Origin: an uncultured Gammaproteobacteria bacterium
GTDB taxonomy: Bacteria > Patescibacteriota > Microgenomatia > UBA8517
Assembly: GCA_964430475.1 (NCBI GenBank)
Contig: CAYSEQ010000001.1
Location: forward strand, 92,951-156,950
Direction of reading: 5' to 3'
DNA: 64,000 nt
This document shows positions 43,232 through 64,000 of this stretch, one piece after another (the stretch's first letter is position 1; every line of letters starts with the position of its first letter). The notes beneath the pieces were generated by a model. That model did not search any database. It was not told the origin of the DNA and saw only the letters and a list, made by a program, of their open reading frames with translations. The position numbers and the translations under genes were made by a program.

Positions 43232-45232
43232 CTAAATTTTAACTTTAATTTCCTTGTCGGTTTTAAGATAAAACTCTTGCATTTTTTTACCTAAGGTTAA
43301 GCTATATAAGGGAGAATCCCTACCGGGTTGTTTTTGGATATATATCTTGTAAACCTGATCAAACTTTTGAGGTAGTTCATATTTAACTTTTACCTCTACT
43401 ATACCCTGGGGTCTCAATTCAAAAAAACCTGAAAAGACCGTCTTGCCAAACTCTTCGTAAGGATCCTTTTTCTCTTGCAGTCCTTCAAGGCTTAATAACT
43501 TACTGCCTTTTGGTACATAGATCCTTACCCAATTTGGAAGAACGCTATTAAGCCAGCCATCATGCCTCATTGGATTTTTGTAAATAATACTCAAAACTTT
43601 CACTACACTACCATCTTCTCTAATTTCAACTTCTTGGTTTACTTCCTGGGTAACATATAGGTTTGATTTTCGACCTCCAAGATTAGCATCGTTTATCATA
43701 AGAAAATCCCCATCGTAGTCATTGATCCTTCCAGCTATTCCGAAACTCTCCAGAGCATGTTGAACCTTTTCATCAAACATAAAAATAAGTATGTGCTTTT
43801 CAAAAATAGATCGAAGAAGCGCGTTGAAAAGGGCAGGTAATTTACTTGTTGGTAAACCCAATGTATCTTTCAAAATAGTATTCATCATCGGACCTATGAT
43901 TTTCTTGCGATTGTCGAAGTTCGGTGGTGCGTACACAATCTTACCAGGCTCATTTTCACTCCAAACGATAGGTCCTTCCAGATCCGCAAAACTTTCTAAC
44001 TCATACACCACCTGCGGACAATTACACAACTCAACAATATTATTTGAATAACCTCCGTATCCCGGAACTTGTATTTCGCCCAAAACATCAAGAATATTTA
44101 CGAGTGTAAAAGTATCCACTGCGATAACTCCATCAATGTTTTTAATTCCAGCCGATGCTGCTTCTCTCGTAAAAAGTTGCATGGACTCAAAAAAGTCAGG
44201 CGACCAATTCATATCTCTTAACCTATAATTTTTTGATATCAAATAGGGACCTTTTATGTATTTTCTCAATACCTCAGGAGCTTCAACTTTTGGTTTATAA
44301 AGATTGTCAAGATTATATATATCATTCGAAGATATAGGCTCAATTATCCCATTTTTTACCTTCGCTATTGAGTAGGCTGTGATAAAACCTCCAGTTGGGC
44401 GAAGTTCCTTGTCATTTTGAAAAATTAGTAGATATCTTCTTTCGCTGTCTAAACCCAAAAGGTAAGGGATAACTTCAAGTAAAGGCTTTCCTCTAATGAC
44501 AAAATTTGATCCTAACTCCACCAGCTCTTTCCCCTTCTCAATCCTATCCCTTATCGGCAGACCAAACATTTTCTCAGGATATCTGGCTGGATCTATATAA
44601 TCGACTTCTTGTTTTAGAAGAGAAACCTTAGTCGAGATTACACCAGACTTTGAGATCAGATCAGGAAGCGATTCTATAATGAACCCAATCGTGTCATAAG
44701 TGCTTTTTCTATCTGGCACCTCTCCCTGAGCATTTTTAAAACCGATAATGTAGGCGTAAGGCGAAACGGTTTCAACTAAAAGGTCTGTTGTCTCAACGCC
44801 ATAAATCCCGGCATTTATTATATGAGAGGCATCGGAAACATAAGTACCCACAAGCGGAAGAAACTTTAACCATCCTACATATTTGAATACCTTTTGGGTT
44901 TCAATAAGGGTATTCTTTACATCTTTTAATTCCCCTTTTATTTTTACGAGATCTTTTTCATCTAAAGCCTGATTTAGTTTTTGTAAGGAACTTTCCAAAG
45001 ACTTGGCATTAAGATAAATCTTGTAAAAACCTATCCCAAACATAAATGCCGTCAGGACAATAAAAAAAAGGATAATCAGTCCTATTTTTCTAAGATTTAA
45101 ACTCCGAAAAGAAACCCAAAAGCTCCTTTTTCTTAATTTCTCGGACTTTCTCTCTTCCATATTAAAGGTGGTTTCCAAATCAGTTGAATTCTCAGAAACC
45201 TCTACACTTTTTATTTTCCTAAACTCAACCAT
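43232..45232 (-). CDS. DUF4012-like large extracytoplasmic protein with an N-terminal TM anchor
   Basis: RRYLLIFQNDKELRPTGGFITAYS and SPDFF segments match what I remember of DUF4012. It is immediately adjacent to a phosphoglycosyl transferase, as is typical. Confidence 0.5.
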   Translation of the reverse strand: MVEFRKIKSVEVSENSTDLETTFNMEERKSEKLRKRSFWVSFRSLNLRKIGLIILFFIVLTAFMFGIGFYKIYLNAKSLESSLQKLNQALDEKDLVKIKGELKDVKNTLIETQKVFKYVGWLKFLPLVGTYVSDASHIINAGIYGVETTDLLVETVSPYAYIIGFKNAQGEVPDRKSTYDTIGFIIESLPDLISKSGVISTKVSLLKQEVDYIDPARYPEKMFGLPIRDRIEKGKELVELGSNFVIRGKPLLEVIPYLLGLDSERRYLLIFQNDKELRPTGGFITAYSIAKVKNGIIEPISSNDIYNLDNLYKPKVEAPEVLRKYIKGPYLISKNYRLRDMNWSPDFFESMQLFTREAASAGIKNIDGVIAVDTFTLVNILDVLGEIQVPGYGGYSNNIVELCNCPQVVYELESFADLEGPIVWSENEPGKIVYAPPNFDNRKKIIGPMMNTILKDTLGLPTSKLPALFNALLRSIFEKHILIFMFDEKVQHALESFGIAGRINDYDGDFLMINDANLGGRKSNLYVTQEVNQEVEIREDGSVVKVLSIIYKNPMRHDGWLNSVLPNWVRIYVPKGSKLLSLEGLQEKKDPYEEFGKTVFSGFFELRPQGIVEVKVKYELPQKFDQVYKIYIQKQPGRDSPLYSLTLGKKMQEFYLKTDKEIKVKI

Positions 45233-45898
45233 CTATACAGCTCCTTTCCCAGAAATCATTGCCCAAGGGGTTTTTAAGATAATAAGAATATCAAAAAGGA
45301 GACTTTTTTTCCTTGCATAATAGGCATCCATCTGAATTCTTTTGTCAAAATTCACCTCACTTCTTCCAGATACCTGCCAATATCCCGTTATTCCTGGTTT
45401 TACTTTCAAAACTTCCTTTACCAATTCTTTGGTATGAGGATATCTTTTTTGCTGTTCTCTCAATTCATCAGGATAATAAGCCCTAGGACCAACAATACTC
45501 ATCTCTCCTTTTAAAACATTTATAAATTGAGGCATCTCATCTATTGAAAACCTCCGAATTATTCTACCTACCTTTGTGACCCTTGGATCTTTAAAAAGCT
45601 TATAACTTGAAGCTTTGTACTCTTTATAGAGCTCTTTAAACCTAGGATCTTTCTTCATAAGATAATGGGCGTTGACAATCATCGACCTGAATTTATATAG
45701 GCGAAATAGCTTTCCATTCTTGCCCACACGTGGCGGAATATCTGCAAAAACCGGACCTGGCGAGGTCAACTTTATTAGTAAAGCAGTTGTCAAAAGAATA
45801 GGAGAAAAAATGATAATAAGAAAAATTGATCCAAATATATCTATCGTTCTTTTAGTTATATTATAAAAAGAACTTAGGTCCTCGCTCGAAAAAATCAT
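45233..45898 (-). CDS. Initiating polyprenyl-phosphate sugar phosphotransferase (bacterial sugar transferase, WbaP/WcaJ C-terminal-domain type)
   Basis: KRTIDIFGS...TSPGPVFADIPPRVGKNGKLFRLYKFRSM...DEMPQFINVLKGEMSIVGPRA. Confidence 0.85.
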   Translation of the reverse strand: MIFSSEDLSSFYNITKRTIDIFGSIFLIIIFSPILLTTALLIKLTSPGPVFADIPPRVGKNGKLFRLYKFRSMIVNAHYLMKKDPRFKELYKEYKASSYKLFKDPRVTKVGRIIRRFSIDEMPQFINVLKGEMSIVGPRAYYPDELREQQKRYPHTKELVKEVLKVKPGITGYWQVSGRSEVNFDKRIQMDAYYARKKSLLFDILIILKTPWAMISGKGAV

Positions 45899-45961
45899 AA
45901 TCGGGCAGAATATTATAATATGTCAAGCCTTAGTAAATCATACCAAAAAATTAAAAATCTT

Positions 45962-47047
45962 CTATTCAACATATTCCTTTTTACTTTTTTCTAGATTCCT
46001 AAAAACCTCTTTGACTAAATCAGTCTTATCTAGCCTACATACAAGAAGACCATCCTCGGTATCAACTACAGCAATATTGGAAAGACCTATCAAGGCAATA
46101 ACCTTTCCTTTTGGCCCTATAATGAGGTTATCTTGAGAATCAATAAACTCTGTATCCACGCCACCCTCAACAACAGTTTTTACATTTTTAGTAATTAAGG
46201 ATTTGTAAAAAAGTTCCCATGTCCCTGCATCTTCCCAACCAACCTCAACAGGAATAACCGCACGTTTATCTTTGGGCATTTTCTCAAAAATCGCATATTC
46301 AACAGACTCTTTTTTAAATTTATGATATTCGGCCTTAAGTGTCCGTTCCCAACGAGGAGTTCCCCAAGCTTCAGCAATCTTTTGGAGTCCTTCCCACATT
46401 TCAGGCTCATATTCTTGATAAAAGGAAAGCATAACATCTGATCTCCAGGCGCGATAGCCTGTATTTATAAGCCACTTTTTAGATCTGAAAAGTTTTTCAG
46501 CTAAAGCTTTTTTAGGCTTCTCAATATGCTTTACGATTTCAACCAGTTTATGACCGTCTATACGCTCAATTGTCCTCCCCAGTTTCACCCATCCGTGATG
46601 GACAGACGGATAAGTAGGTTTTTCATCAACCGAAACTATCAGACTTTTTTTGTTCGCATACTCTCCTGCTAAGACAACAGCTTTAAGAAAGTCCATTTCC
46701 TTTGCTATAAAGTGATCGGACCAGGAAACCATCATTACTTCAGCGGGGAATATTTTATTGATAATTGCTGTTGCCAATCCTACTGCGCCAAGATTGTCTC
46801 TTCTTTCAGGCTCCGCGATTATATTCTTCTTAGGAATCTCGTGGGCTTGAACTCTAACATAAGGAATGTAAACTTCCTCGGTTGAAATAAATATATCCTC
46901 GGGCTTAAAAACCTTCAAAAATCTTGAAAGAGTAAGCTGAAAAAATGACTTTCCTTTAACGAGAGGATAAAACTGTTTAGGATAGCTTTTCCGGCTTACC
47001 GGCCACATTCGGGTGCCGTATCCGCCGCAAAAAATTACTATTTTCAT
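45962..47047 (-). CDS. Mannose-1-phosphate guanylyltransferase-like sugar nucleotidyltransferase
   Basis: IFCGGYGTRMWPVSRKSYPKQF, IIAEPERRDN, SDHFI and AGTWE. Confidence 0.65.
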   Translation of the reverse strand: MKIVIFCGGYGTRMWPVSRKSYPKQFYPLVKGKSFFQLTLSRFLKVFKPEDIFISTEEVYIPYVRVQAHEIPKKNIIAEPERRDNLGAVGLATAIINKIFPAEVMMVSWSDHFIAKEMDFLKAVVLAGEYANKKSLIVSVDEKPTYPSVHHGWVKLGRTIERIDGHKLVEIVKHIEKPKKALAEKLFRSKKWLINTGYRAWRSDVMLSFYQEYEPEMWEGLQKIAEAWGTPRWERTLKAEYHKFKKESVEYAIFEKMPKDKRAVIPVEVGWEDAGTWELFYKSLITKNVKTVVEGGVDTEFIDSQDNLIIGPKGKVIALIGLSNIAVVDTEDGLLVCRLDKTDLVKEVFRNLEKSKKEYVE

Positions 47048-47071
47048 TTAACAATTAAATCTATATAAAAC

Positions 47072-48172
47072 TTATTTTAATTTGCTTTTGGTATACTTAT
47101 CAACTATTACTTTGATTTTTTCCTTAAATTTTTCCTTTGAAAATTTTTCAGCATTTTTAAAAAGTACATTTTTATCCCAAGGACCATGGCTCTCCATCAA
47201 ACCCACAGCTTCTATTATACTTTCTTTAGACTGTTCATCGAAGAAAATTCCAGTTTTCCCTTCAATTACCGTCTCTTTAGCCCCACCTTTTCTGTAGGCA
47301 ATAACAGGAGTGCCCGCTGCTTGTGCCTCAACCGCTACCATCCCAAAATCTTCTTCTTGAGGTTGTATCAGCGCTTTTGCATCAATATATAGTTTAATTA
47401 GCTCATCTTCTCTAACAAACGACTTGAAGGTAATATTCTTTCTAGCAAGTGATCGCAACTTTTTCTCCTCACTGCCAACACCAACTATTACAAGAGGCAA
47501 TGCTAAATCATTAAATGCCTCAATAACAAGATCGACGCGTTTATAAGGAACAAGCCTTGAGACCACAAGATAATACTTTTTCCGCGAAACGCTTTTTTTA
47601 CTAATTCTGACTATTTTTCTCACATCTACTGGTGGATATATTAATTGCGATGTTCTTCCATAAAACTTTCTAATTCTTTCTTGAACAGCCTTTGAAATTC
47701 CAACCATAACATCCGGTCTTTGAGCAGCTATTTTATCCCAATATCTAAGGTAACCAACTATAGGCTTAGAGAAAAAACTAAATAACTTTGACTTAAAATA
47801 AAAATGATAATGACTCCAAAGATATCTTGTAGGTGTAAGACAATAGCAGATGTGAAGAGTACTTGGTTTAGTAAGTATACCCTTCGCAGCTTCTGAGGTA
47901 ACCGAGATTACCAAGTCATACCCCTCAAAATTAAAGTATTCAAACGCAATTGGCATAAGGAAAGGAAAAATTTCATGATGATTTCTTATAAAGGGTAACT
48001 TTTGCAAAAACGATGTCTCTACAGAAGGGAAAGCTTTCGCCCATAAGGCTTTCCTGGGATTATAAACCGAAGTATAAAGTGGGGCTTTCGGGAAAATCTC
48101 ATGAAGTGTTAATAGTACCCTCTCTGCGCCACCCCACTTGTTTACTCTATCATAGACAATCGCTACCTTCAT
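47072..48172 (-). CDS. Family 4 glycosyltransferase
   Basis: EDFGMVAVEAQAAGTPVIAYRKGGAKETV. Confidence 0.7.
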   Translation of the reverse strand: MKVAIVYDRVNKWGGAERVLLTLHEIFPKAPLYTSVYNPRKALWAKAFPSVETSFLQKLPFIRNHHEIFPFLMPIAFEYFNFEGYDLVISVTSEAAKGILTKPSTLHICYCLTPTRYLWSHYHFYFKSKLFSFFSKPIVGYLRYWDKIAAQRPDVMVGISKAVQERIRKFYGRTSQLIYPPVDVRKIVRISKKSVSRKKYYLVVSRLVPYKRVDLVIEAFNDLALPLVIVGVGSEEKKLRSLARKNITFKSFVREDELIKLYIDAKALIQPQEEDFGMVAVEAQAAGTPVIAYRKGGAKETVIEGKTGIFFDEQSKESIIEAVGLMESHGPWDKNVLFKNAEKFSKEKFKEKIKVIVDKYTKSKLK

Positions 48173-48219
48173 TTTTTAAAGATTTGATTAGAAAATACTT
48201 TCATACACCTAACTGACGC

Positions 48220-49404
48220 TTAGTGCTTTTCTTCTATTACTCTTTCATACACACGAAAAGTTTCCTTAGCCATTCTTCTCCAGGAAAATTCCTTTGCAAA
48301 ATCCCTCCCTTTTTTCAAATACTCACGCCTTTTTCCTTGAGGCATTTTAAATATCTTTTCCATAACTTTTATCAAAGATTCTTCACTTGTAGGATCAAAA
48401 AAGAAAGCCTTATCTTTATAAACTTCTCTAAAAACAGGTATATCAGAAGCTATCACTAAGCAACCAGAAGCCATTGCCTCCAATCCCTGTAGACCAAATC
48501 CCTCAGAAAGAGATGGATATAAAAAAGCCAAAGAATTTTGATAAAGGACCCTTAAATCACTATCCTTTACAAAACCCAGAATTCTAACATAGCGCTGTGC
48601 GTTATTATTAACAATATAACCTTTTAGTCTTGATTTAAAAGAGTCTTTTATCCCTGCAATTACAAGCAAAGCATCCATTTTTTTCGTTTCGTTGAGTTTT
48701 TTAACTGCACGAACAGCAAGCTCCAAGTTTTTGTGAGGATAAGCATTTCCTACATAGAAAAAATAATTTTTATGCTTAAGATTGAAATTTCCAAGAAGTT
48801 TTTTTTCTAATCTTTTCCTCTCCAAAAAAAACCTCTGTACTCCTTCAGGCACAACCACAACTTTAGAAGGTTCAACTCCAAAATAACTTAAAATCTGCTT
48901 TTTGATTACTTTACTTGGTACAAAAATTTTTTTGGCTCTTAAGATAGAGTTCCTAAAAATAATTTTATAGGGAATTCGCTTTATCAAGTATCTATAAAAT
49001 GGCAAGGTTGTTGAATTTTTCCCTTGAAAATGCATTATCATATCGTGAATTGTTACAACAAAATCTCCATTGTAAAACATGGGTACATTAAAATGGGGGA
49101 AATGCACTAGGCTAGGTTTTTCTCGGTGTATTATAAATGGAATTTTTATTTGTTCGTCAATCGTATAGTGTTTTATGTCCGAAAGAATCTTATTCCAATT
49201 TTTGGGAAACTTTAATTGATTATAGTACTTTTTGCGCAGAAGGACGACAAAATTAAATTTCTCATATCTTTTATCAGAAAGTGAGAGAGTTTTAAGTTCT
49301 TTTATTAAATTTGCCACATACCTCCCAATTCCAGAGTTTTCTAAACCATACATTCTTCCATCAATTAATATCTTTTTTCCCATAAAAACTTCACTTTTAA
49401 CCAA
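48220..49404 (-). CDS. Family 4 glycosyltransferase
   Basis: SEGFGLQGLEAMASGCLVIASDIPVFREV. Confidence 0.75.
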   Translation of the reverse strand: MVKSEVFMGKKILIDGRMYGLENSGIGRYVANLIKELKTLSLSDKRYEKFNFVVLLRKKYYNQLKFPKNWNKILSDIKHYTIDEQIKIPFIIHREKPSLVHFPHFNVPMFYNGDFVVTIHDMIMHFQGKNSTTLPFYRYLIKRIPYKIIFRNSILRAKKIFVPSKVIKKQILSYFGVEPSKVVVVPEGVQRFFLERKRLEKKLLGNFNLKHKNYFFYVGNAYPHKNLELAVRAVKKLNETKKMDALLVIAGIKDSFKSRLKGYIVNNNAQRYVRILGFVKDSDLRVLYQNSLAFLYPSLSEGFGLQGLEAMASGCLVIASDIPVFREVYKDKAFFFDPTSEESLIKVMEKIFKMPQGKRREYLKKGRDFAKEFSWRRMAKETFRVYERVIEEKH

Positions 49405-50311
49405 AAAGCAATGTAGAAAAAAATCTTTTTAGTCTCATTAACCTTATTCCTAAAACAACAATATAATTTACAACTAAAGGATACCTTTTCCAAAGTCTTT
49501 TTCGATAAAAAATTTCCATCGATTCTACGCCAGCCATTCTAAATCTAAGCTTTTCCTCTAAACTAACTTTTACTTTTGAACTTTCACTCTTGCCTTTTGA
49601 AACACCTTTAAAGTGGATAATCGTAGCGTTCGGATAATAAACTATTTTCCAGCCTCGCATTTTTATCCGCCAACACAAGTCCACATCCTCCCCATCCAAG
49701 AAATAATCTTCATCAAACCAACCAACCTCGTCTAAAACTTTCCTCCGGGTCAAGAAAAACGCTCCTTGTGCTACATCTATCTCATGCTCAATATCCGCTG
49801 GAATCCATCCATACCAATATTGACCAAAAAGCCTAGAATTTGGGAAAAGTTTATCCAACCCAGTCAAAAGGTGAACAAAACCTATCCATGGTGTAATAAA
49901 CTTTCTCCTTGCGTCTTTATCTAAATCTCCATTTGGAAGAAGAATCTTACACGATAAAACACCTACATCCTGGTGTAAATCCAAGTAGCTAACCGTATTT
50001 TTCAAGGTATCTTTATTAACCAGCGTATCGGAATTTAAGAACAAAACATACCTCCCTCTACAAACATCTTTTGCCTTATTATTTCCTTTAGCAAAACCTA
50101 GATTTTTTTTATTGACTATTAGCTTAACCCAAGGGAATTTTTTTCTAACAAGATATTGGGATCCATCAGTCGAAGCATTATCGATAACGATGATTTCGCT
50201 TTCCACCTCATTTTTCACTTTAACCAATGAAAGTAAACAATTCTCAAGAAATTCTTTGGTGTTGAAGTTAAGAATTACAATGGAAAGTTTAGGTTTTTTC
50301 ATTTCTAGCAA
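49397..50311 (-). CDS. Family 2 glycosyltransferase (WbbL/rhamnosyltransferase-like)
   Basis: LSIVILNFNT...IIVIDNASTDGS...KNLGFAKGNN. Confidence 0.75.
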   Translation of the reverse strand: MLEMKKPKLSIVILNFNTKEFLENCLLSLVKVKNEVESEIIVIDNASTDGSQYLVRKKFPWVKLIVNKKNLGFAKGNNKAKDVCRGRYVLFLNSDTLVNKDTLKNTVSYLDLHQDVGVLSCKILLPNGDLDKDARRKFITPWIGFVHLLTGLDKLFPNSRLFGQYWYGWIPADIEHEIDVAQGAFFLTRRKVLDEVGWFDEDYFLDGEDVDLCWRIKMRGWKIVYYPNATIIHFKGVSKGKSESSKVKVSLEEKLRFRMAGVESMEIFYRKRLWKRYPLVVNYIVVLGIRLMRLKRFFSTLLFG

Positions 50312-51503: not shown

Positions 51504-51505
51504 TT

Positions 51506-56598: not shown

Positions 56599-57659
56599 GA
56601 AAAGTTTTTCACGCGTTTTAAACCTCTTTCTATTAACTTATTTTTTTCTTTTTGACTCATACTAAGAATTGTTTTCAGTCCACCAGCAATACTTTCTATA
56701 TTATAAGGGTTTACATATATACCTGCATCTTTTACAATTTCAGGAAGACTTGCAACTTTACTCACTACAACCGGTGTTCCACAAGCCATACTACTTAAGA
56801 CATCCATACCAAATCCTTCCCAAAATGATGGCAAAACATACAATTCTGCAGCAGTTAAGAGTGCGGCCTTTTCTTTTTCACTCACATAACCTGTAAATAA
56901 AACATTTTTTTCTAATTTTAAATCCTTTATCTTCTTAAAGATTGGATGATAAAGCCATCCCTTCTTTCCTGCGATTACCAAAAGACAATCAAATTCCTTA
57001 ACTATGTTTTTATAAGCCTCTAAAAGTCCTTCAACATTTTTACTAGGCTTTAATGTTGATAAAAAAAGGATATACTTTTTGTATATCCTATATTTTTTAA
57101 GAATTCGTCGCACAAAATTTTTAGAAATTTTTGTGTTGAAGTTATCTTTATCAAATCCATGATAAATTATTTTCACTTTTTTTGAGGCAAAAGGATAATG
57201 TCGTACAATATCATTAGCTGTAGATTTTGACGGAGAAATGATATATTTTGATACAGATATTGAAATAGCACTCCAGTATTTTAACTGCCAAAAATCGTAT
57301 TTTCTAAATTGGCCCGAAAATTTGAGATAACCTAGGTCATGTATTGTACAAATCATCGGTGCACGCGAGAAAATCGGTAAATAATGCGATGGTGAAAAAA
57401 ACACATCTAACTTTTCAGTCGTCAAAAGCCGAGGCATTAAACCGGTCAAGACCCAAAATTTCCCACTAGGAAAAATCTTATATTCCCAAAAGGGATTGCT
57501 TCTGGGCATATCTTCATTTGGAGGATTTTTTAAATAAATTCTAAACCTTAGATTATTATCCTGTAGTTTGTGAAGATTAACTAGTATTTGCCACGCGTAT
57601 TGATTGACTCCAACTTTCTCCGTCACATTTGCTTCGTTTCCATCAATCCCTATCAACAT
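56538..57659 (-). CDS. Family 4 glycosyltransferase
   Basis: [31 protein letters not shown]. Confidence 0.75.
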
Positions 57660-57751: not shown

Positions 57752-58846
57752 TTATAAGGCAAGCTTTTTATAAACCTCCAATGTAGCTTTAGCGGTTTTA
57801 ATCCAATCATACCTTTTAAGGACAGAAAGACCCTTTTTAACCCAAAAGTCTTTTTTCTTTAAAACATTCAAAATTCCTTCTGAAATTGAAACAGGATCTT
57901 GGGGGTCAACCAAAAAAGCGGCGTCCTTACCTATCTCACGCATACTGCCAAGATTAGAAGTAACAACCGGTGTTTTGCATGCAAAGGACTCCAAAATCGG
58001 CAGTCCAAAACCTTCGTAAAGCGATGGATAAACTAAAGCTTCAGCTGCCGTGAAAAGTTTTGGCAAATCTAATTTCGGAACAAAGCCTAAAAATTTTACG
58101 CCTCTTATAGGACTTATACCCTTAACTTCACTACCAATAACCACTAATTTCAAGCCTGTAATGGGTTTTATTCTCTCAAAGGCTTCAATAACTCTCTTAA
58201 CATTCTTTCTCGGACTGGTACCAATAGCAAGAATAAAATTCCCTGAAATCAAATACTTTCTCTTTACTTTTTCTACCTCGTACTTTTTAGCAGGTTTAAA
58301 AATTGGATCAGGAGCCTCAGGTATGATAGATATTCTTTCGGGTCTAAAACCAAAATCAAGGCAATCTTCATAAGTGGTTTTTGATGGCACAATAATTCTA
58401 TCTACCTCTTTGACAACCCATCTTAGTCTTGCCTTGTGCACGGAAATTATCTTAGGATCTGAATACATGGGAAACTTTAATGGTATCAAATCGTGAATAG
58501 TACTTACCTTAAAAGCCAAGGAGGGAGGCTGCACCCAATCCGAAGAGTGCAGGACATCAACTTTTCCTATCAACCTCTCAATATTCAAAACATGTAGTCT
58601 ATTCCATAAAATATCGGCAAAAAAGGGAGAAATAGGAAAGATTTTATACTTAACATTGTTAAACTGCCCAACTTTTTTTAATTCGTTTAACTTAAACTCT
58701 AAAACATTTCTCCCCCTTAGAGAACCGCCATACAAAATGAATTCGTCTTTATTATCAATTTTTAGTAAATTTTTGACGAGATTTTCCGTATACACTGACA
58801 CTCCAAAATCGTAAATCATTTGCGAAACATCAATCGCTATCCTCAT
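57752..58846 (-). CDS. Family 4 glycosyltransferase
   Basis: YEGFGLPILESFACKTPVVTSNLGSMREI. Confidence 0.75.
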   Translation of the reverse strand: MRIAIDVSQMIYDFGVSVYTENLVKNLLKIDNKDEFILYGGSLRGRNVLEFKLNELKKVGQFNNVKYKIFPISPFFADILWNRLHVLNIERLIGKVDVLHSSDWVQPPSLAFKVSTIHDLIPLKFPMYSDPKIISVHKARLRWVVKEVDRIIVPSKTTYEDCLDFGFRPERISIIPEAPDPIFKPAKKYEVEKVKRKYLISGNFILAIGTSPRKNVKRVIEAFERIKPITGLKLVVIGSEVKGISPIRGVKFLGFVPKLDLPKLFTAAEALVYPSLYEGFGLPILESFACKTPVVTSNLGSMREIGKDAAFLVDPQDPVSISEGILNVLKKKDFWVKKGLSVLKRYDWIKTAKATLEVYKKLAL

Positions 58847-58851
58847 AAATT

Positions 58852-60234
58852 TTAGATTTCCTTTCTTAGCAAGATATCCAAAGGTCCCAATTTTTCAGCT
58901 TCAACATAGTTTTGGTCAATATACTCCTTTATTAAAGGCATTGCACTTACTAAATTTATCCCTTGCACTTGCGCATGTTTATCTCTTACAACTACTCTAG
59001 GCGGATCAGTAATTAAACCGCTTAAAATTTTTTCCTCCGCTTCCCTCATAAACCAAGGGAATTGAAATACAAAAACATTTCCCGGAGGAAGCCTGTTGGC
59101 TAAAAAATAAAGATGTGGAGTAGTACCAAAAGCAAAGACTTTATCTTCACTTTCTGAATAATTATTGATTTTATCAACTAATCTTTTCTCTAAATCTCCA
59201 AAAAAAAGCACATCTTTCCCCCAAGCCCATTGGTAAAAGGGTATGATTAAATAAAAAGAGAATAAAAAATAGAATAACAATCCAATTTTTAAAATATTGG
59301 GCTGAAGATTTAGGAAAAGATAATATAAAGATATTAAAACAAAAGGTAGTGATGGCTGTAAATGAACAAAGTCAAACCTTGCGTAGACAAAAGATAAAGT
59401 ACCAAGTAAAAACACACTCAAAAGTTTCAGAATTTTAAAATCCTTTCTAAAATAAATTAGCCAGAAAGAAATAAATACAGGCCAGTAAACCCAGAAAGCC
59501 TTTACTAGATCGAATAAACTTGGATATTTTCTACCCATTTGTGCAAATGTCGTTAAATTAAAAGTTATAGTCCAATAAAATAAATCTTTTATGACACCCA
59601 TTTTTACAAAATAAATTATCACCGGTAGTTCAACCAATACCATAAAAACTAAAAACCAAAAAATGGTTTTGTATCTTTTTTCTAAAAAAAATAAACCTAC
59701 TAGAAGAAAAATCAAGACAACACTTACCTGTTTCATCTCCAAAGAAAGACCCAAGACTAATCCCAGGAAAGCAGAGTAAAACTTAGCATTCAAATCTTTT
59801 GAAATCAATAAATAAAATGCAAAAAGAAAGATTGGTACCACTAAAGAATCAATCCATAAAACATACCCTTCAAAAAAGGGGTGCCAAAACGCATATAAAA
59901 GATTCAAAATTAACAAAAATTTACTATCCTTAGAAATTTTTCTTGCGATAAGAAACAAAAGAATATGATTGATAATAATCGTTACTGCATGCAAAAAAAA
60001 TGCACCCAACGGAGTTTTAATTCCGAGAGTATAAAAATTAACTGGAAGGAAAAAAAGTCCGGGAAAGTGCTGGTCTATGATCTCTTTATAAGGTAAAAGT
60101 CCTTTAGTCGTTAGATAAGAATAGACAAAAATTTCGGGATACGGAAAAAAAATAATCTTGGTCAAGATAAAAACATGCAGACCAATTATTAATATCAGAA
60201 AAATATTATAAAAGTTAAAAATTTTGTTTTTCAT
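58852..60234 (-). CDS. Polytopic membrane protein, possibly a GT-C-like glycosyltransferase
   Basis: About 12 TM helices with a C-terminal soluble domain of about 100 aa. This is the same architecture as the adjacent GT-C genes. The sequence motif is weak. Confidence 0.35.
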   Translation of the reverse strand: MKNKIFNFYNIFLILIIGLHVFILTKIIFFPYPEIFVYSYLTTKGLLPYKEIIDQHFPGLFFLPVNFYTLGIKTPLGAFFLHAVTIIINHILLFLIARKISKDSKFLLILNLLYAFWHPFFEGYVLWIDSLVVPIFLFAFYLLISKDLNAKFYSAFLGLVLGLSLEMKQVSVVLIFLLVGLFFLEKRYKTIFWFLVFMVLVELPVIIYFVKMGVIKDLFYWTITFNLTTFAQMGRKYPSLFDLVKAFWVYWPVFISFWLIYFRKDFKILKLLSVFLLGTLSFVYARFDFVHLQPSLPFVLISLYYLFLNLQPNILKIGLLFYFLFSFYLIIPFYQWAWGKDVLFFGDLEKRLVDKINNYSESEDKVFAFGTTPHLYFLANRLPPGNVFVFQFPWFMREAEEKILSGLITDPPRVVVRDKHAQVQGINLVSAMPLIKEYIDQNYVEAEKLGPLDILLRKEI

Positions 60235-61703
60235 TCTTTAACCCAATAAGTTATTTTCCCAACCCCAGTAAAATCGCCATACTCCTCTTTTATCTTAAAG
60301 CCCCCATTAATAATTTCACTTTCAACCACTCTTCTAGGATCAGATAAGTCTCGCAAATATTCAAAATAATAAATTCCACTTTTATCATCTATCAGCATCT
60401 TGGTTTTTTCTCTTGTTTTCTCTGAATTTGCGAAAATTGAATCCGTAGCTCCCATTGCCTCAACCATCCCATTTGAATACCATCTATAAGGAGTAAAAGG
60501 TTCGGGATATTCAAATAGAATTATCTCGGAATCGGATACCTTATCTTCAACAAATCTCACAGCTTCCCTCCATTTTTCTCTCTGTTGGCGAGGATCATTC
60601 CAGTAAATAAACAATCCTAAAAAATTAAAGACTATCAAAAGCATAAAAGATAAAACCCTTAAGAAGTTATTCTTCATTGTCGTTATTCCCAAACCAACAA
60701 GTATATAAAACGCTGGTAATAGAAAGAGAAATCTAAAGAAATTAAAAGCAGGTATGATAAAAGACAAAGACAAAACTAAAACCAAAGGAACAAAGTACCA
60801 CAGCCAAATTATTTTCAAGCTTTTTTTTAGAAAAATAAAACTTCTCAACAGGCCTAAAAAGGCTGGAACCGAAGAAAACAAAACCAAAACAAGATAAACC
60901 GATTTATTAATTAGCGAAATCCTCCCAAAAACAAACTTTGTCCAAACAAACAAAATCTGTCTTATATCACTTCCTCCAGCAACTTCTTTCCATCCGGGCA
61001 AAGCATTCAAAAGCCACAAGCCGTTTTCAACTTGTTTTCTAAAAATCGGAAACCAGAAGAAACTTAATATTAAAATTGGCAAATGCGAAATCAAAAATCT
61101 GATCAAAAAATCTGTATCTTTTAACTTTTTTTCAAAAAATGAAAATAACCAAAAAATGGGTAATAAAAATAATGGTAGGTAATCAGTAAAAACAAGTGCA
61201 GTAATTGAAAAAGAAAATAATACCCACCTTAGATTCAAGAAAGAGTAGACAGCAAGTGTAGCTAAAAATGCAGCCATAGAATACATTCTTGCTTCTTGGG
61301 AATAGAAAATATGGAGTTGGGAGGTTGCGATAAGCAAACTAACAAGAATTGGGCTAGTCGGTTCGGTACTATTTTTATACAAATGTTTGCAGATCTTAAA
61401 TACAAGAAATACAGTCGCTACGCCAAACAAGACTGAAGGAAGTCTCAGTGAGAATTCTGAAAAACCAAAAATATTTGTCCATAATTTAAGAAATAAATAG
61501 TAAAGGGGCGGGTGATTATCAAATTTTGGAAACTCAGTTAGAATGTACCAAAACGAACCTTTCTTAACTTCAAAAGCACCGATGGACTCATCAAGCCAAA
61601 GAGATTGATTAATCGCCAAAAGTCTTAACAGAAAAGACATAAGTAAAATAAAAAGTACAGAATACCTACTACTAATACATCGATGTATTGTTAGTGAGGA
61701 CAT
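60231..61703 (-). CDS. GT-C fold glycosyltransferase, family 39/83 (ArnT/PMT-like)
   Basis: LWLDESIGAF...HPPLYYLFLKLW is the classic ArnT/PMT first-loop DE motif plus HPPLYY. Confidence 0.65.
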   Translation of the reverse strand: MSSLTIHRCISSRYSVLFILLMSFLLRLLAINQSLWLDESIGAFEVKKGSFWYILTEFPKFDNHPPLYYLFLKLWTNIFGFSEFSLRLPSVLFGVATVFLVFKICKHLYKNSTEPTSPILVSLLIATSQLHIFYSQEARMYSMAAFLATLAVYSFLNLRWVLFSFSITALVFTDYLPLFLLPIFWLFSFFEKKLKDTDFLIRFLISHLPILILSFFWFPIFRKQVENGLWLLNALPGWKEVAGGSDIRQILFVWTKFVFGRISLINKSVYLVLVLFSSVPAFLGLLRSFIFLKKSLKIIWLWYFVPLVLVLSLSFIIPAFNFFRFLFLLPAFYILVGLGITTMKNNFLRVLSFMLLIVFNFLGLFIYWNDPRQQREKWREAVRFVEDKVSDSEIILFEYPEPFTPYRWYSNGMVEAMGATDSIFANSEKTREKTKMLIDDKSGIYYFEYLRDLSDPRRVVESEIINGGFKIKEEYGDFTGVGKITYWVKE

Positions 61704-61869
61704 TTTTTTGTTCTAAATCTCCCCTGTATTTAAAAAAATTACTTTAAATTTACTTTTTTTAGTTTCCTTTTTTACAGGAAAGTATTATAGCTTTATTAGT
61801 TGGACGCTTTAAGCTTCTTTAGCCTTTTTCGCAACTTTATCGACTTAAACCTTAAAACCACTATATGAC

Positions 61870-62661
61870 TCATAGAGTTTTTAAAAAATGCTTTACTGCT
61901 AGATTAAATTTTTTACTTCTTTCCCAAATTTTCACCCAAACCGAAACCTTGTATATCATCATTAGGTAAGTTAAAGAAAAACCCTCAAAGCCATCCAAAA
62001 ATCCAAAATGCCGAATAAACCTTGATAAAAAAACCCTGATGGGCCACCAAAAAAGATTAAAAAAGGTTGGGTCAACACCTCTTTGAATTAGATTTTCTGC
62101 CTCAATCTCCGAGTATCGATTCTGACGAGCCAAAAATTCATAAATATTATCATATTGCTTATGAACTATTGCTAGGTTCTCGGTACCTGGAAGTTCAAAA
62201 ATCTTGCCTTGAACTTGAGGATAAGAATGAATATCCTTTTTCCATAAGACCTTTCCTTTCTTGAAAAATCTTATCTGTCTGTCAGGCCACCAATTAGTAT
62301 GTTTTATCCATTTCCCAAAAATAATATTTTTTCTGGGTATATTTACAGCATCATATTTTCCTGATTTACTAATCTCTTTAAGCTTTTTTTTAAGGTCATC
62401 CGTAATATACTCATCAGGGTCAAGTAGAATCACCCATTCTCCTCCACACGCTTCAATCATCTTATTTCTAATTAGCTCAATATAAGACACTTTATCTATA
62501 TCAATAAGCTTAGCACCAAACTTTTTTGCTACCACCCGTATATTACGATCTACTCTTGACAAATTAAAAATTAAAATCTCATCAGCAAAGCCCTTTAAAG
62601 ATTTTAGACACCTTTCCAATTTTTCGCTTTCGTTAAAAGAAGCAATCGCTAATGAAATCAT
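61870..62661 (-). CDS. Family 2 glycosyltransferase
   Basis: ISLAIASFNE..., ILLDPDE (DxD) and a GT-A fold length. Confidence 0.6.
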   Translation of the reverse strand: MISLAIASFNESEKLERCLKSLKGFADEILIFNLSRVDRNIRVVAKKFGAKLIDIDKVSYIELIRNKMIEACGGEWVILLDPDEYITDDLKKKLKEISKSGKYDAVNIPRKNIIFGKWIKHTNWWPDRQIRFFKKGKVLWKKDIHSYPQVQGKIFELPGTENLAIVHKQYDNIYEFLARQNRYSEIEAENLIQRGVDPTFFNLFWWPIRVFLSRFIRHFGFLDGFEGFSLTYLMMIYKVSVWVKIWERSKKFNLAVKHFLKTL

Positions 62662-62701
62662 ATAGTTTTGATATACTAAATTTTAGTAATCTGTTGACTT
62701 G

Positions 62702-63715
62702 TTAAGTTAATTCTTCAAAAATTTCCTCATATTTTTTCACAATTTTGTCCCATGAGAATTTTTGAGCTTGTTTCCTAGGTTTACTACCCCAATCAATTTT
62801 TAAAGCCATTTTTAAAGCCTGAGCATAAGCGTTAGTATCTGTTGGATCAACTAATATACCAGCATTACCAACAATCTCCTTCCTTTGCTCATCGTTAGGT
62901 GCAACAACAGGAAGCCCACTGGCTAGCGCTTCTAAATAAACCATACCAAAAGCCTCGTTTGGCCAAGAAGGCAAAGTGAAAAGATCACATGAGCGATAAT
63001 AATTTGCGATTTCCTCAAACCCAACCTTTTTAATCATAAACCTTCCTCGTAATTTTAAATTAGCAAGTTTCCTAATCTCAGTTTCATAATCCCCTTCTCC
63101 TAAGATCAAAAGGCTAGCTTTTTTAAGCCTTGATACAGCTTCTATAGCTAGCTCCATTCTTTTTTCTTTAACCAAGGCTCCAACCATTAAAATAATAGGT
63201 CTTGGGAGAGGAATATCTACTTTCGGTCCTAATGGTTTAAAAACTTCTAAATTTACTCCGTCGGGAACTTGGTAAACCTTTATAAAAGGATTTATCCTCT
63301 TTGCCCATTTAGCCTGCCTTGAGGTTAATCCCACAAATGCATCTGGAAAACAGTAAATATTGTTTCTATCATCCCAACCAATACCGGAGTGGCCAATAAC
63401 AACCATCCTTCCACCCCTTAACCATGTAAGAAGGCGTACCAAAGCAGGTTGCCAACCACCATTTATAGGAATTACGATATCAAATTTTTCTCTCCAAAGA
63501 TTAATGAGATTTTTGAAAGTAAACCAAAATATAAAAATTCCTTGAGGATCAATAAAAAACCTCCAAAAAAAGGACCATCTTTTTAAAGGCTTGACTTTGG
63601 CACTGAAAATAACTACATCATAACCATTCTTCAATCTTTTTGATATTTCTTCAACAAATCTCTCAGCTCCCCTAAGCACACCTCCCTGATAAGCACTTAA
63701 AATCCCTATCTTCAT
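62702..63715 (-). CDS. Family 4 glycosyltransferase
   Basis: NEAFGMVYLEALASGLPVVAPNDEQRKEIVGNAG. Confidence 0.7.
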   Translation of the reverse strand: MKIGILSAYQGGVLRGAERFVEEISKRLKNGYDVVIFSAKVKPLKRWSFFWRFFIDPQGIFIFWFTFKNLINLWREKFDIVIPINGGWQPALVRLLTWLRGGRMVVIGHSGIGWDDRNNIYCFPDAFVGLTSRQAKWAKRINPFIKVYQVPDGVNLEVFKPLGPKVDIPLPRPIILMVGALVKEKRMELAIEAVSRLKKASLLILGEGDYETEIRKLANLKLRGRFMIKKVGFEEIANYYRSCDLFTLPSWPNEAFGMVYLEALASGLPVVAPNDEQRKEIVGNAGILVDPTDTNAYAQALKMALKIDWGSKPRKQAQKFSWDKIVKKYEEIFEELT

Positions 63716-63772
63716 TTTTTAAATACTAAACAATTCGTCCTTTTTATTAAATAAAAATAAAGAAAAAATCGG

Positions 63773-64000
63773 TTAATTCCAAAATCTATATCTGAAAAGT
63801 GTTAAAACCGCAACAAATCCATCTACCCAACTAATCTTTTTCCCTTCCTTATAGCCTCTGGGTTTTATCTTTATAGGAATTTCATGGATTTCGAGCCCCT
63901 TTTTTAATATTTTCGCGGTTATTTCTGGTTCGAACTCAAAACGCTTAGATTTAAGTTCTATTCCATCTAAAACTTTTCTTTTGAACATTTTGTAACCTGT
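63773..64000 (-). CDS. C-terminal part of a family 2 glycosyltransferase (DPM1/GtrB-like polyprenol-phosphate sugar synthase). The gene continues beyond the window end.
   Basis: ...RFEFEPEITAKILKKGLEIHEIPIKIKPRGYKEGKKISW resembles the C-termini of dolichyl/undecaprenyl-phosphate glycosyltransferases. The listed 71-aa ORF is an internal-Met truncation. Confidence 0.5.
   Translation of the reverse strand, partial: TGYKMFKRKVLDGIELKSKRFEFEPEITAKILKKGLEIHEIPIKIKPRGYKEGKKISWVDGFVAVLTLFRYRFWN

Follow-up and report, generated by a model that had tools for sequence, protein, structure and literature searches.

Does the 21-kb run of about 20 sugar-adding genes at positions 43232-64000 of the analyzed window (a stretch of 64,000 nucleotides) encode a strain-variable surface coat, a collection of unrelated functions, or the pathway to a single conserved glycan? 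A first-pass annotation, made from the sequence alone, had described a co-directional glycan locus with a satellite at the window start, and read it as protein O-glycosylation or lipoglycan decoration rather than a simple O-antigen. Our analysis confirmed the observation and supported the interpretation in part. We found no paper that describes this locus or the second locus discussed below, and the new result is the conservation of the main locus. We consider it fairly probable that the locus belongs to the core genome of a Woesebacteria-like member of the Microgenomates (Patescibacteria/CPR), is inherited vertically, and makes a single complex, conserved envelope glycan, carried on polyprenyl phosphate and built by enzymes on both membrane faces; its likely extent is 43232-64000 plus about 1.2 kb past the window end.

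Organization of the Locus

All genes listed in the first-pass annotation between 43232 and 64000 are real, with the coordinates given below, and lie on the minus strand. Pfam and public gene calls upheld the initiating transferase, the ManC-like enzyme, six GT4, the acetyltransferase, and the O-antigen-ligase-family protein (Wzy_C). Two genes in the interval had not been listed, encoding a DUF4012 protein (43232-45232) and a 188-aa bitopic protein (55291-55857). The shared strand and the overlaps that had been stressed are genuine, but the strand is uninformative, because all Pfam-supported genes from 12.2 to 64 kb are on the minus strand, and the long overlaps become shorter when the start codons of the public gene calls are used (longest ORFs are spaced by -62 to +166 nt, the latter being the largest gap). 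In a simple scan, promoter and terminator matches, some of them inside the locus, equaled the shuffled expectation, and the main locus has no GC anomaly. The signal above chance comes from other genomes, where the collinearity is conserved.

Priming and Cytoplasmic Enzymes

The locus encodes a small single-TM polyprenyl-phosphate glycosyl-1-phosphate transferase (PGT; 45233-45898, 221 aa; Bac_transf, E = 6.5e-60), which aligns to the C-terminal catalytic part of the NCBIfam models EPS_sugtrans, WbaP, and WcaJ, and has a median identity of 70% in relatives. Immediately after its stop (gap 0) is the start codon of the DUF4012 gene, whose product (666 aa; PF13196, 5.6e-22) has a large extracytoplasmic part anchored by an N-terminal TM. 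This adjacency recurs in 64 of 65 related contigs, and the DUF4012 protein appears to be a conserved partner of the PGT; DUF4012 likewise adjoins the PGT in the EPS locus of Bifidobacterium longum (PMC5412050). The neighboring ManC-like NDP-hexose pyrophosphorylase (45962-47047, 361 aa; NTP_transferase and ManC_GMP_beta-helix) consists of a guanylyltransferase domain and a beta-helix without the isomerase domain, and matches positions 3-350 of the 467 of TIGR01479 (8.5e-61, below cutoff); none of the enzymes of the main locus reaches an NCBIfam equivalog cutoff. Two non-orthologous forms occupy the ManC slot in relatives (27-34% or 52-65% identity).

The GT4 enzymes are GT4a (47072-48172, 366 aa; Glycos_transf_1, 1.2e-30) and GT4b (48220-49383, 387 aa; Glycos_transf_1, 8.2e-34), both syntenic in relatives; GT4c (50289-51503, 404 aa; Pfam), the most conserved glycosyltransferase of the locus, with up to 74-75% identity in relatives; GT4d (56538-57659, 373 aa; Glycos_transf_1, 6.2e-36; 62/65 loci) and GT4e (57752-58846, 364 aa; Glycos_transf_1 and Glyco_transf_4; 65/65 loci); and the GT-B glycosyltransferase GT4f (62702-63715, 337 aa; Glycos_transf_1, 1.1e-27), whose orthologue occupies the corresponding place in 54 of 65 loci. 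The four GT2 previously counted are three complete genes and the C-terminal 75 aa of a fourth (see below). Among the complete ones, GT2a (49397-50302, 301 aa; Glyco_tranf_2_3 and Glycos_transf_2) occurs in Woese- and Amesbacteria-type loci (28/65), and GT2b (54389-55309, 306 aa; Glycos_transf_2, 3.4e-27; 25/65 loci) occurs in Woesebacteria-type loci and is missing from most Daviesbacteria-type loci. GT2c (61870-62661, 263 aa; Glycos_transf_2; 56/65 loci) is a soluble GT2 of a GmaR/SunS-like subgroup, with a sub-cutoff match to NCBIfam SunS (3.2e-13) and GmaR (2e-11), ThuS-like 7msk, and SunS as its only PDB matches. A WcaF-like hexapeptide acetyltransferase with a left-handed beta-helix (55876-56517 and 213 aa in the public gene call, the longest ORF extending to 56598; Hexapep, 1.1e-19; WcaF-family NF007797, 2.9e-28, below cutoff) is present in 63 of 65 loci at a median identity of 61%.

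Membrane Enzymes and the Polyprenyl-Phosphate-Sugar Synthase

The three membrane proteins first listed as GT-C glycosyltransferases are indeed such enzymes, not transporters; GTC1 and GTC3 both score above the PMT_2 gathering score. GTC1 (51506-53095, 529 aa from a TTG start; 58/65 loci) is over cutoff for PMT_2 (40.3 bits) and PMT (35.9 bits), and has invariant D75/D83 within its PIADWHSWRQADT loop and a C-terminal soluble domain. GTC3 (60231-61703, 490 aa; PMT_2, 38.2 bits vs. cutoff 26.1; 59/65 loci) aligns to GTC1 in hhalign (98.5%) and has invariant D38-E39 following the first TM segment in its hydropathy profile; a soluble domain of about 120 aa forms its C-terminus. GTC2 (58852-60234, 460 aa) has no Pfam or NCBIfam match of its own; the motif DQHFPG in one of its loops is invariant, and about residues 345-460, at the C-terminus, form an alpha/beta domain. 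Acidic loop residues are invariant in all three families, which are distinct subfamilies that diverged anciently.

The DPM1-like GT2 noted at the window end (63773-64000, the C-terminal 75 codons and stop) is indeed a relative of polyprenyl-phosphate-sugar synthases. Its full gene encodes 234 aa (L156:1381-2085, same contig), with Pyrococcus DPMS (1.4e-18, residues 1-211), ArnC, and GtrB as best PDB matches; the best NCBIfam matches of an orthologue are AglJ, PpgS, and ArnC, all below cutoff. It is a candidate DPM1/ArnC/GtrB/PpgS-like synthase, and 54 of the 65 syntenic loci encode it, at a median identity of 61%. No GtrA-like flippase for a polyprenyl-phosphate-sugar was identified.

The Wzy_C-family polytopic membrane protein (53047-54363, 438 aa in the gene call; PF04932, 47.8 bits vs. 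cutoff 31.7; 61/65 loci) may be either a ligase or a polymerase. All 31 orthologues tested match PF04932 and none has a PglL-specific domain; the TIGR04370 repeat-unit-polymerase model is weakly matched by four of them, and RfaL by one. Searches of PDB sequences and profiles gave no match, and no similarity to any solved ligase was detected. The 188-aa protein is lineage-specific. A Pro-rich linker joins its N-terminal TM to an alpha+beta domain of about 110 aa, which is followed by a TM helix at the C-terminus. The protein lacks a PCP-like fold, and no Wzz Pfam match was found, so that no polysaccharide co-polymerase was identified. Likewise, the locus holds no chain-length regulator and no target protein, and neither locus nor window contains an LCP ligase (Pfam).

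A Second Glycan Locus

The genes at 1-6185, previously taken as a satellite of the main locus, were confirmed by Pfam and contig context, but belong to a second, separately conserved locus (locus B) with its own Wzx, Wzy_C, and GT-C. Within the window, all on the minus strand, it comprises the N-terminus of a GT2-PMT_2 fusion (1-996), a GT4 (975-2084), a SAM methyltransferase (2081-2920), a Wzx/MOP flippase (2901-4133), a GT2 (4171-5157), and a GT4 (5166-6185); past the window start are the remainder of the fusion, a 251-aa GT2, whose only or best solved relatives are the protein/peptide glycosyltransferases GmaR and SunS, and a 375-aa Wzy_C. More than 2000 homologues of its Wzx exist; those that match best, at 51-62% identity, carry Woese-, Levy-, Gottesman-, Chisholm-, and Beckwithbacteria names. 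Woese- and Chisholmbacteria contigs share the gene order of locus B, as do Levybacteria contigs for the core only. No PGT of its own was seen in the contig context or in relatives' contigs.

The flippase at 2901-4133 had been assigned to the main glycan; in relatives, however, the main locus has its own MOP/Wzx flippase at the 5' end, a position that our source contig stops short of, so that this gene is known from relatives alone. Nor is either SAM methyltransferase invoked for that glycan (2081-2920 and 7187-7858) in the main locus, whose own methyltransferase(s) are just past the window end.

Conservation among Related Microgenomates

Using motif patterns from one GT-C, we retrieved related loci from 71 species genomes, with Woese-, Davies-, and Amesbacteria names. 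Gene order is identical in 65 of them, no case is non-collinear, and the interleaving of GT-C with GT4 and GT2 genes is retained in all 65 loci. In 80 metagenome contigs the main locus continues as PGT-DUF4012-recO-aaRS-mraZ, and in about 45 long ones the backbone PGT-DUF4012-recO-aaRS-o252-mraZ-mraW-PBP is conserved; in all relatives seen, the locus immediately precedes the recO-aaRS-dcw peptidoglycan/division cluster and runs in the same direction. Median identities of the glycan genes are 47-70%, except for the ManC slot (32%), and those of recO, aaRS, mraZ, mraW, and PBP on the same contigs are 48-62%. GT2a, GT2b, the ManC type, and extra GT-C paralogues differ between lineages. Part of the conserved order may stem from the general high collinearity of these small genomes.

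The tight spacing, the identical order, and the GT-C genes lying among GT4 and GT2 genes (gaps of 2-5 nt or a 4-nt overlap) argue for one unit, while the conserved backbone, housekeeping-like identity, and lack of a GC anomaly argue that it is core rather than accessory. As first suggested, this is not the behavior of a simple O-antigen.

A Proposed Pathway

The following proposal builds on the enzyme families above; we infer the order of steps, the sugars, and the product. The ManC-like enzyme would supply an NDP-hexose, probably GDP-mannose, and the small monotopic PGT would transfer a sugar-1-phosphate onto polyprenyl phosphate at the inner face. Elongation to a large lipid-linked oligosaccharide may then fall to the six GT4 and to two or three soluble GT2; the acetyltransferase, together with the methyltransferase(s) from the adjacent upstream gene(s), would modify this product, and the MOP/Wzx flippase would flip it outward. 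In a parallel branch, the 234-aa GT2 would make polyprenyl-phosphate-hexose, from which the three GT-C enzymes would add residues outside the membrane. Wzy_C may ligate the finished glycan to an acceptor or polymerize it, with the DUF4012 and 188-aa proteins as putative conserved extracytoplasmic accessory parts.

Acceptor and Alternative Explanations

The acceptor may be surface proteins (pilins or an S-layer, O-glycosylated en bloc) or, with equal plausibility, a common polysaccharide or lipoglycan anchored in wall or membrane; something else is a lesser possibility. General protein O-glycosylation, with Wzy_C as a PglL/PilO/WsaB-type O-oligosaccharyltransferase acting en bloc on type IV pilins or S-layer, is a serious if tentative candidate, and at least one PMT_2 enzyme might glycosylate proteins directly. 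About nine cytoplasmic and at least three external conserved transferases, with neither chain-length regulator nor LCP ligase, fit one large oligosaccharide better than a repeat-unit polymer. Monoderms are not known to have the lipid A-core to which a WaaL-type ligase would attach a glycan. GTC1 passes the PMT cutoff, but PMT and PMT_2 models also pick up lipid- or glycan-directed GT-C such as ArnT; GmaR and SunS are the only or best solved relatives of GT2c and the 251-aa GT2 of locus B, but the similarity is limited to the GT-A core. The absence of a PglL-specific domain from the Wzy_C family and of detectable similarity to any solved ligase also weighs against an oligosaccharyltransferase, and the window contains no target protein or Ser/Thr/Pro-rich protein of the kind that the first-pass annotation suggested looking for. 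As a precedent, the Bacteroidota have general O-glycosylation loci, among them the decasaccharide cluster of Tannerella forsythia, that are likewise deeply conserved (PMC6120980, PMC12871550). Just as credible is a conserved cell-wall polysaccharide or lipoglycan, whose role would resemble that of enterobacterial common antigen, a secondary cell-wall polymer, or lipomannan, and in which Wzy_C polymerizes flipped repeat units and the GT-C enzymes extend or branch them from polyprenyl-phosphate-sugar. PGT, Wzx, and Wzy_C are the standard parts of Wzx/Wzy-dependent synthesis, and GT-C enzymes build mycobacterial mannan and arabinan. The TIGR04370 matches, the position beside the dcw cluster, and the Bifidobacterium DUF4012 precedent point the same way; the missing co-polymerase and LCP ligase do not, and for a single repeat unit about 12 transferases would be an unusually high number.

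Two independent, interleaved pathways are an unlikely explanation, in which PGT, GT4, GT2, Wzx, and Wzy_C make a heteroglycan and the synthase and GT-C enzymes decorate another molecule (for example proteins, a lipoteichoic-acid-like polymer, or the locus B product). Since the genomes are highly collinear around the locus too, order alone does not prove one product; synthase and GT-C pairs act elsewhere as stand-alone modification modules (ArnC/ArnT, GtrB/GtrC, PpgS/Rv3779), and the lack of a PGT in locus B makes cross-talk between the loci possible. However, the GT-C genes are not clustered with the synthase but interspersed with GT4 and GT2 genes, an arrangement that recurs in each of the 65 loci. 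An ordinary strain-variable O-antigen or capsule-type island, possibly horizontally acquired, is very improbable: PGT, GT2, GT4, acetyltransferase, and Wzy_C are families typical of such islands, and several slots do vary by lineage, but the same order in 65 species genomes under three candidate-phylum names, identity equal to that of housekeeping neighbors, fixed flanks, and unremarkable GC all contradict it. Least credible of all is a transporter function for the membrane proteins, or an assembly of unrelated operons brought together by chance; GTC2 without a family match and the predicted promoter and terminator sites inside the locus would allow this, but the GT-C identity of the membrane proteins and the collinearity of 65 loci contradict it.

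The main locus is thus probably a core envelope-glycan pathway operating on both membrane faces, not a variable O-antigen or capsule island. Given the same gene order and housekeeping-level conservation in many uncultured Microgenomates (CPR), its product is probably a conserved cell-surface glycan of these bacteria rather than a strain-variable coat.

Gene Content and Organization of the Main Glycan Locus

The main glycan locus (referred to here as locus A) occupies 43232-64000 on the minus strand and continues for about 1.2 kb beyond the window end. ORF calling found 18 complete ORFs and one cut ORF in this interval, all on the minus strand. Based on Pfam and the gene calls of the public record, they encode, read in the direction of transcription, a GT2 truncated at the window end (63773-64000), GT4f, GT2c (61870-62661), GTC3 (PMT_2; 60231-61703), GTC2 (no match; 58852-60234), GT4e, GT4d, a hexapeptide acetyltransferase (AcT), a 188-aa protein (no match; 55291-55857), GT2b, a Wzy_C protein (53047-54363), GTC1 (PMT_2 and PMT; 51506-53095), GT4c, GT2a, GT4b, GT4a, a ManC-like nucleotidyltransferase (45962-47047), a 221-aa Bac_transf polyprenyl-phosphate glycosyl-1-phosphate transferase (PGT; 45233-45898), and a 666-aa DUF4012 protein (43232-45232). 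The first-pass annotation had counted six GT4, four GT2, one acetyltransferase, one Wzy_C, and three GT-C, in agreement with these assignments, and had left out the DUF4012 gene and the gene for the 188-aa protein. Its description of the genes as nearly contiguous holds (intergenic distances of -62 to +166 nt), but the long overlaps that it also reported shrink with the public gene calls, because they come from taking the most upstream start codon.

The shared orientation of these genes says little, since all supported genes from 12.2 to 64 kb lie on one strand, and a promoter and terminator scan of the window is uninformative on operon structure, as its counts equal the shuffled expectation. 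The GC content of locus A (0.31-0.37) resembles that of the remainder, with no step at the locus (0.30-0.39 over the window). The PGT, with a Bac_transf match of E 6.5e-60 in Pfam, is of the kind expected for the priming transferase of a Wzx/Wzy-dependent pathway. In a search for sugar specificity, none of the GT4, GT2, PGT, or ManC-like proteins of locus A reached an NCBIfam equivalog cutoff.

Conservation of Locus A in Related Genomes

The window corresponds to the reverse strand of an 81.6-kb Logan contig (run SRR11582147), and proteins identical to those of the window are also encoded on a 166-kb NCBI contig. The nearest named relatives of the window proteins belong to Candidatus Woesebacteria, a member of the Microgenomates group within Patescibacteria. 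Related loci were found by motif scans seeded from locus A itself. A first scan, covering one genome per species with GTC2 motifs as the query, yielded 71 loci from genomes named Woese-, Davies-, and Amesbacteria, "Microgenomates," and "Patescibacteria." When the window proteins were compared by BLASTP with all ORFs of these loci, the order was identical in 65 of the 71 and non-collinear in none, with most gene absences attributable to contig ends or to the 10-kb limit set on the flanks. The shared order is synthase-GT4f-GT2c-GTC3-GTC2-GT4e-GT4d-AcT-188aa-(GT2b)-WzyC-GTC1-GT4c-(GT2a)-GT4b-GT4a-(ManC)-PGT, where "synthase" is the GT2 truncated at the window end. Most Daviesbacteria-type loci lack GT2a and GT2b. 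Comparison with related genomes, which had been proposed as a check, returned 65 collinear copies of one conserved unit and not a mosaic of unrelated operons. Many of the matching loci are deposited under the MAG title "uncultured Gammaproteobacteria bacterium" (e.g., stretches L003, L006, L010, and L012), one under "Alphaproteobacteria," and one under "Candidatus Binatia"; these titles look generic or wrong, because the syntenic records carry a Microgenomates-type locus.

In a second search, the DUF4012 protein served as the query against JGI metagenomes, and 80 contigs were recovered. The PGT and DUF4012 genes are adjacent in 64 of 65 of these, and DUF4012 adjoins recO in 62 of 73, followed beyond recO by an aminoacyl-tRNA synthetase (aaRS) gene, a gene for a 252-aa protein, mraZ, mraW, and a penicillin-binding protein (PBP) gene, an arrangement that the window matches. 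Median identities of the glycan proteins to those of the window lie between 47 and 70% (PGT 70, GT4c 59, GT4a 58, GT2a 56, DUF4012 55, GT2b 52, GTC1 51, WzyC 48, and GT4b 47%), with the ManC slot as the exception at 32%. On the same contigs, the median identities of the neighbors are 49% for RecO, 62% for the aaRS, 52% for MraZ, 48% for MraW, and 57% for the PBP. As its identity equals that of its housekeeping neighbors, locus A evolves like the core genome and unlike O-antigen or capsule islands. The earlier view that it is unlike a simple O-antigen locus is supported by the 65 collinear loci, the housekeeping-like identity, and the lack of GC deviation.

The ManC slot (45962-47047, and the same slot in the related stretches L074-L153) is bimodal, with identities of either 27-34% or 52-65%. 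Two non-orthologous NDP-sugar enzymes at the same position suggest a lineage-specific change of one activated sugar. In the flanking backbone, the 252-aa protein between the aaRS gene and mraZ (window 39214-39972) has an N-terminal TM segment and no Pfam match, and is kept at the same position in 45 related contigs (40-52% identity). A DUF2130 gene between recO and the aaRS gene (window 41529-42644) is found in only 12 of the 80 related contigs; the backbone is otherwise fixed, and this interval is where it varies.

GT-C Enzymes and the Candidate Polyprenyl-Phosphate-Sugar Synthase

In Pfam, GTC1 matches both PMT_2 (40.3 bits, cutoff 26.1) and PMT (35.9 bits, cutoff 22.7), and GTC3 matches PMT_2 (38.2 bits, cutoff 26.1). 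GTC2 itself has no Pfam match, but PF13231 is present in most of its orthologs. The GT-C architecture is recognizable in a polytopic N-terminal module, a long first outer loop, and a C-terminal soluble domain. The loop carries invariant acidic residues, namely D54 within DQHFPG in GTC2, D75 and D83 in GTC1, and D38-E39 in GTC3, which the predicted fold would place on the outer face of the membrane. Sequence and profile searches of GTC1 and GTC3 against solved GT-C enzymes gave nothing significant (best match EmbA, E 0.09).

The donor for these enzymes is probably a polyprenyl-phosphate-linked sugar, for which locus A also contains a candidate synthase. The same contig gives the complete sequence (234 aa) of the GT2 truncated at the window end, which contains a DAD motif. 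The seven best solved relatives of this GT2 in a PDB search are the Pyrococcus dolichol-phosphate-mannose synthase (DPMS; 5mlz, 1.4e-18 over residues 1-211) together with three sequences each of ArnC and GtrB sll0501. The best NCBIfam matches of an ortholog are AglJ, PpgS, ArnC, PgfS, and a haloarchaeal dolichyl-phosphate hexose transferase, all far below cutoff (114.6 bits against a cutoff of 325 for AglJ). One or two SAM methyltransferase genes precede the synthase.

This conserved locus varies mainly in how many GT-C enzymes it encodes. Extra PMT_2 paralogs of about 500-550 aa are inserted at several positions, mainly in Daviesbacteria-type genomes (L022:5362-6882 and L004:642-2291 in two stretches from relatives, with similar genes in L023, L027, L028, L032, L040, L047, and L072).

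Flippase and Upstream Region

No MOP/Wzx flippase gene is present in 43232-64000 or in the readable 1.9 kb beyond the window end. The first-pass annotation had combined the main locus with the Wzx at window 2901-4133; that Wzx is part of the satellite locus described below, and the orthologous loci of relatives carry their own MOP/Wzx flippase (Polysacc_synt) at the 5' end, with only 22-27% identity to it. Locus A therefore need not rely on the Wzx at 2901-4133. The upstream region in relatives consists of genes encoding a polytopic protein of about 900 aa, Wzx, a GT2, and a methyltransferase. The ~900-aa protein (L013:82-2850, L011:416-3127, and L027:153-2753, all in relatives and outside the window) is encoded directly upstream of Wzx; it begins with about 10 TM segments, continues with an outside domain of about 450 aa, and is anchored by a TM segment at its C-terminus. 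Pfam, PDB, and hhalign searches gave no match and no support for it being a further GT-C; another membrane enzyme acting on glycans is a possible role. Between the GT2 and methyltransferase genes, Woesebacteria-type loci have an asparagine synthase (glutamine amidotransferase) gene in reverse orientation (L013:4941-6812, minus strand, with equivalents in L004, L005, and L010-L016); it may take part in sugar-acid amidation or be unrelated.

The Satellite Locus

The satellite locus (locus B) covers window 1-6185 on the minus strand and continues beyond the window start (L002:11089-15286). Its gene order is GT4, GT2, Wzx, methyltransferase, GT4, a GT2-PMT_2 fusion (741 aa), GT2 (251 aa), and Wzy_C (375 aa), after which come Big_6/Glucodextran_B and LysM proteins in the opposite orientation, and PolX. 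Its Wzx has more than 2000 homologs, the best of which (51-62% identity) carry Woese-, Levy-, Gottesman-, Chisholm-, and Beckwithbacteria names. Related loci were found on contigs L157, L159/L160, and L161. A Woesebacteria contig has an identical order and far flank, with all eight genes at 45-63% identity, and so does a Chisholmbacteria contig at 33-51% identity, in which GT2 and PMT_2 are split into two genes; they form one fused protein in Woese- and Levybacteria. The possibility that locus B is a variable, strain-specific locus was ruled out by this conservation across several candidate phyla.

On the Levybacteria contig (L161:16050-21230), genes for a GT87-family GT-C, a 334-aa protein, and two PMT_2 come after the locus B core, and those for a 234-aa GT2 and another PMT_2 lie upstream. 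Glycan loci rich in GT-C appear to be characteristic of the group in general. A PGT is encoded in locus A but not in locus B, and there may be a link between the two loci. The genes between locus B and a tRNA-Val gene (10366-10439) include one (window 7911-8588, minus strand) for a polytopic protein of 225 aa that matches Ferric_reduct below threshold, and one (window 8644-9711, plus strand) for a 355-aa protein with a signal anchor and a weak match to Glyco_hydro_cc.

Comparison with Known Systems

Searches of the full-text literature found no description of either locus; DUF4012 and unnamed Microgenomates-enriched membrane families are mentioned by Méheust et al. 2019 (PMC6744442). By sequence comparison, locus A does not appear to be a member of any characterized system, sharing only Pfam-level families and fold. 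In its logic, it resembles by analogy mycobacterial LM/LAM/AG synthesis, the dolichol LLO pathway, and synthase-plus-ArnT-type modules, and in its conservation it is comparable to ECA and the Bacteroidota O-glycosylation loci.

The mycobacterial and corynebacterial LM/LAM/AG pathways combine the GT4 enzymes PimA/PimB, the synthases Ppm1 or PpgS, and the GT-C enzymes PimE, MptA/B/C, EmbA/B/C, AftA-D, and Rv3779. Sequence similarity to these GT-C families is not significant (EmbA being the best profile match), and locus A, whose genes form one string, has a PGT, a Wzx (in relatives), and a Wzy_C that are unused in LM/LAM synthesis. With the dolichol LLO pathway (ALG7, ALG1/2/11, RFT1, DPM1/ALG5, ALG3/9/12/6/8/10, and STT3/AglB; AglD/AglR/AglS in Haloferax), the fold alone is in common, at 9-14% identity, and locus A ends in a Wzy_C protein instead of an STT3/PglB/AglB oligosaccharyltransferase, with no STT3-like gene identified in it. 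The three-component systems ArnC/ArnT, GtrA/GtrB/GtrC, CsbB/YfhO, and Rhizobium RgtE with RgtA-D decorate the glycan of other loci, whereas the GT-C genes of locus A are embedded among primary-glycan genes and no GtrA-like flippase was found.

The ECA locus (wec/rff, in the E. coli layout) is comparable in that a single co-directional cluster, conserved lineage-wide and serving a surface glycan, groups the genes for priming, glycosyl transfer, and acetylation with those for Wzx (for locus A, found in relatives) and a protein of Wzy type, but it uses a WecA-type primer instead of Bac_transf, a Wzz co-polymerase, and a trisaccharide unit, and has no GT-C. The Bacteroidota general O-glycosylation loci, such as the decasaccharide cluster of Tannerella forsythia, are conserved at a deep taxonomic level, and their product is a defined oligosaccharide of large size that carries methyl and acetyl groups (PMC6120980, PMC12871550). 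Their hosts are diderm, and the likeness to locus A is one of locus-level features. We know of no GT-C enzymes or DPM1-like synthase in these loci. In the EPS locus of Bifidobacterium longum 105-A, the priming Bac_transf gene lies directly beside a DUF4012 gene (PMC5412050), the same adjacency as in locus A; unlike locus A, that locus is strain-variable, has a Wzz beside DUF4012, and lacks GT-C.

Proposed Pathway and Possible Acceptors

The families, fold, and conservation observed for locus A fit a two-compartment polyprenol pathway, from which we infer the order of reactions, the sugars, and a single product. The ManC-like enzyme would supply an NDP-hexose and the PGT would prime the lipid carrier; the six GT4 and two or three of the GT2 enzymes may then extend the glycan in the cytoplasm, with acetylation and methylation, before it is flipped by a Wzx of the kind found in relatives. 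Outside, the three GT-C enzymes would continue extension with the polyprenyl-phosphate-sugar made by the candidate synthase, and the Wzy_C protein would carry out the final step. The main argument for one product rather than two is that the GT-C genes are interleaved with GT4 and GT2 genes, with gaps of 2-5 nt or a 4-nt overlap, and are kept so in all relatives.

Surface proteins as acceptors, i.e., protein O-glycosylation, have in our estimate slightly less than an even chance. The only solved relatives of GT2c (61870-62661), and the best ones of the 251-aa GT2 of locus B (L002:13327-14082), are the protein or peptide glycosyltransferases GmaR and SunS/ThuS, of which GmaR is a flagellin O-GlcNAc transferase; both GT2 proteins are small and soluble, and finding a GmaR/SunS-like enzyme in each locus weakly suggests that proteins are glycosylated directly. 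A glycan locus conserved at such depth is also known from the general O-glycosylation of Bacteroidota. Against this, no target gene is found nearby: the Ser/Thr/Pro-rich target anticipated by the first-pass annotation did not emerge, as the window search gave only an antisense-frame artifact, and the window contains no pilin or S-layer gene. Nor does the Wzy_C family point to a protein ligase. PF04932 (Wzy_C) is present in the window protein and all 31 orthologs, but NCBIfam matches among the latter are weak and mixed (IctB 10, repeat-unit polymerase 4, RfaL 1, and a weak PEP_O_lig_1 match in 1 of 31, E 0.093), with no other Pfam family common to the 31 and no PglL-specific features found. PDB sequence and profile searches were empty, and hhalign comparisons with E. 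coli WaaL and WzyE were not significant, so that the family has no link detectable by such comparisons to any characterized ligase or polymerase.

That the product is instead a wall or membrane polymer or a lipoglycan is about equally likely, as locus A adjoins the dcw cluster and its PGT-DUF4012 pairing recurs in the Bifidobacterium EPS locus (PMC5412050). A classical Wzy polymer fits less well, because locus A has no Wzz Pfam match and neither it nor the window has a Wzz or LCP gene; the 188-aa protein is bitopic and resembles a PCP in topology, but structural comparison of its confidently predicted model (pLDDT 88) matched no PCP; and about 12 conserved transferases are many for one repeat unit. 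A more specific version of the two-compartment pathway, which we consider less likely than not, is a Microgenomates counterpart of the eukaryotic and archaeal lipid-linked-oligosaccharide pathway. In this version, the PGT and the GT4 and GT2 enzymes would begin a defined glycan on the inside, three or more GT-C would complete it outside from polyprenyl-phosphate-sugar to more than 12 sugars, and a Wzy_C ligase would transfer it en bloc to pilins or S-layer proteins. If true, this glycan would be a universal, essential surface feature of an uncultured lineage and a likely determinant of host attachment.

Implications for the Microgenomates Envelope

To our knowledge, the Microgenomates have no cultured representative. 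Locus A, at about 22 kb, would account for roughly 2% of the genome if this has the size typical of the group, assumed here to be about 1 Mb. The fusion of a PGT/Wzx/Wzy_C pathway with several GT-C enzymes in one core, lineage-wide, operon-like unit is an unusual bacterial case, which provides a defined enzyme set for heterologous reconstitution and ties two lineage-specific unknown proteins, the 188-aa protein and DUF4012, to glycan assembly. Its gene-for-gene retention and housekeeping rate of evolution, beside the division and peptidoglycan cluster, point to an indispensable, conserved surface glycoconjugate, and the glycan is a possible common antigen for labeling, sorting, and enriching these organisms.
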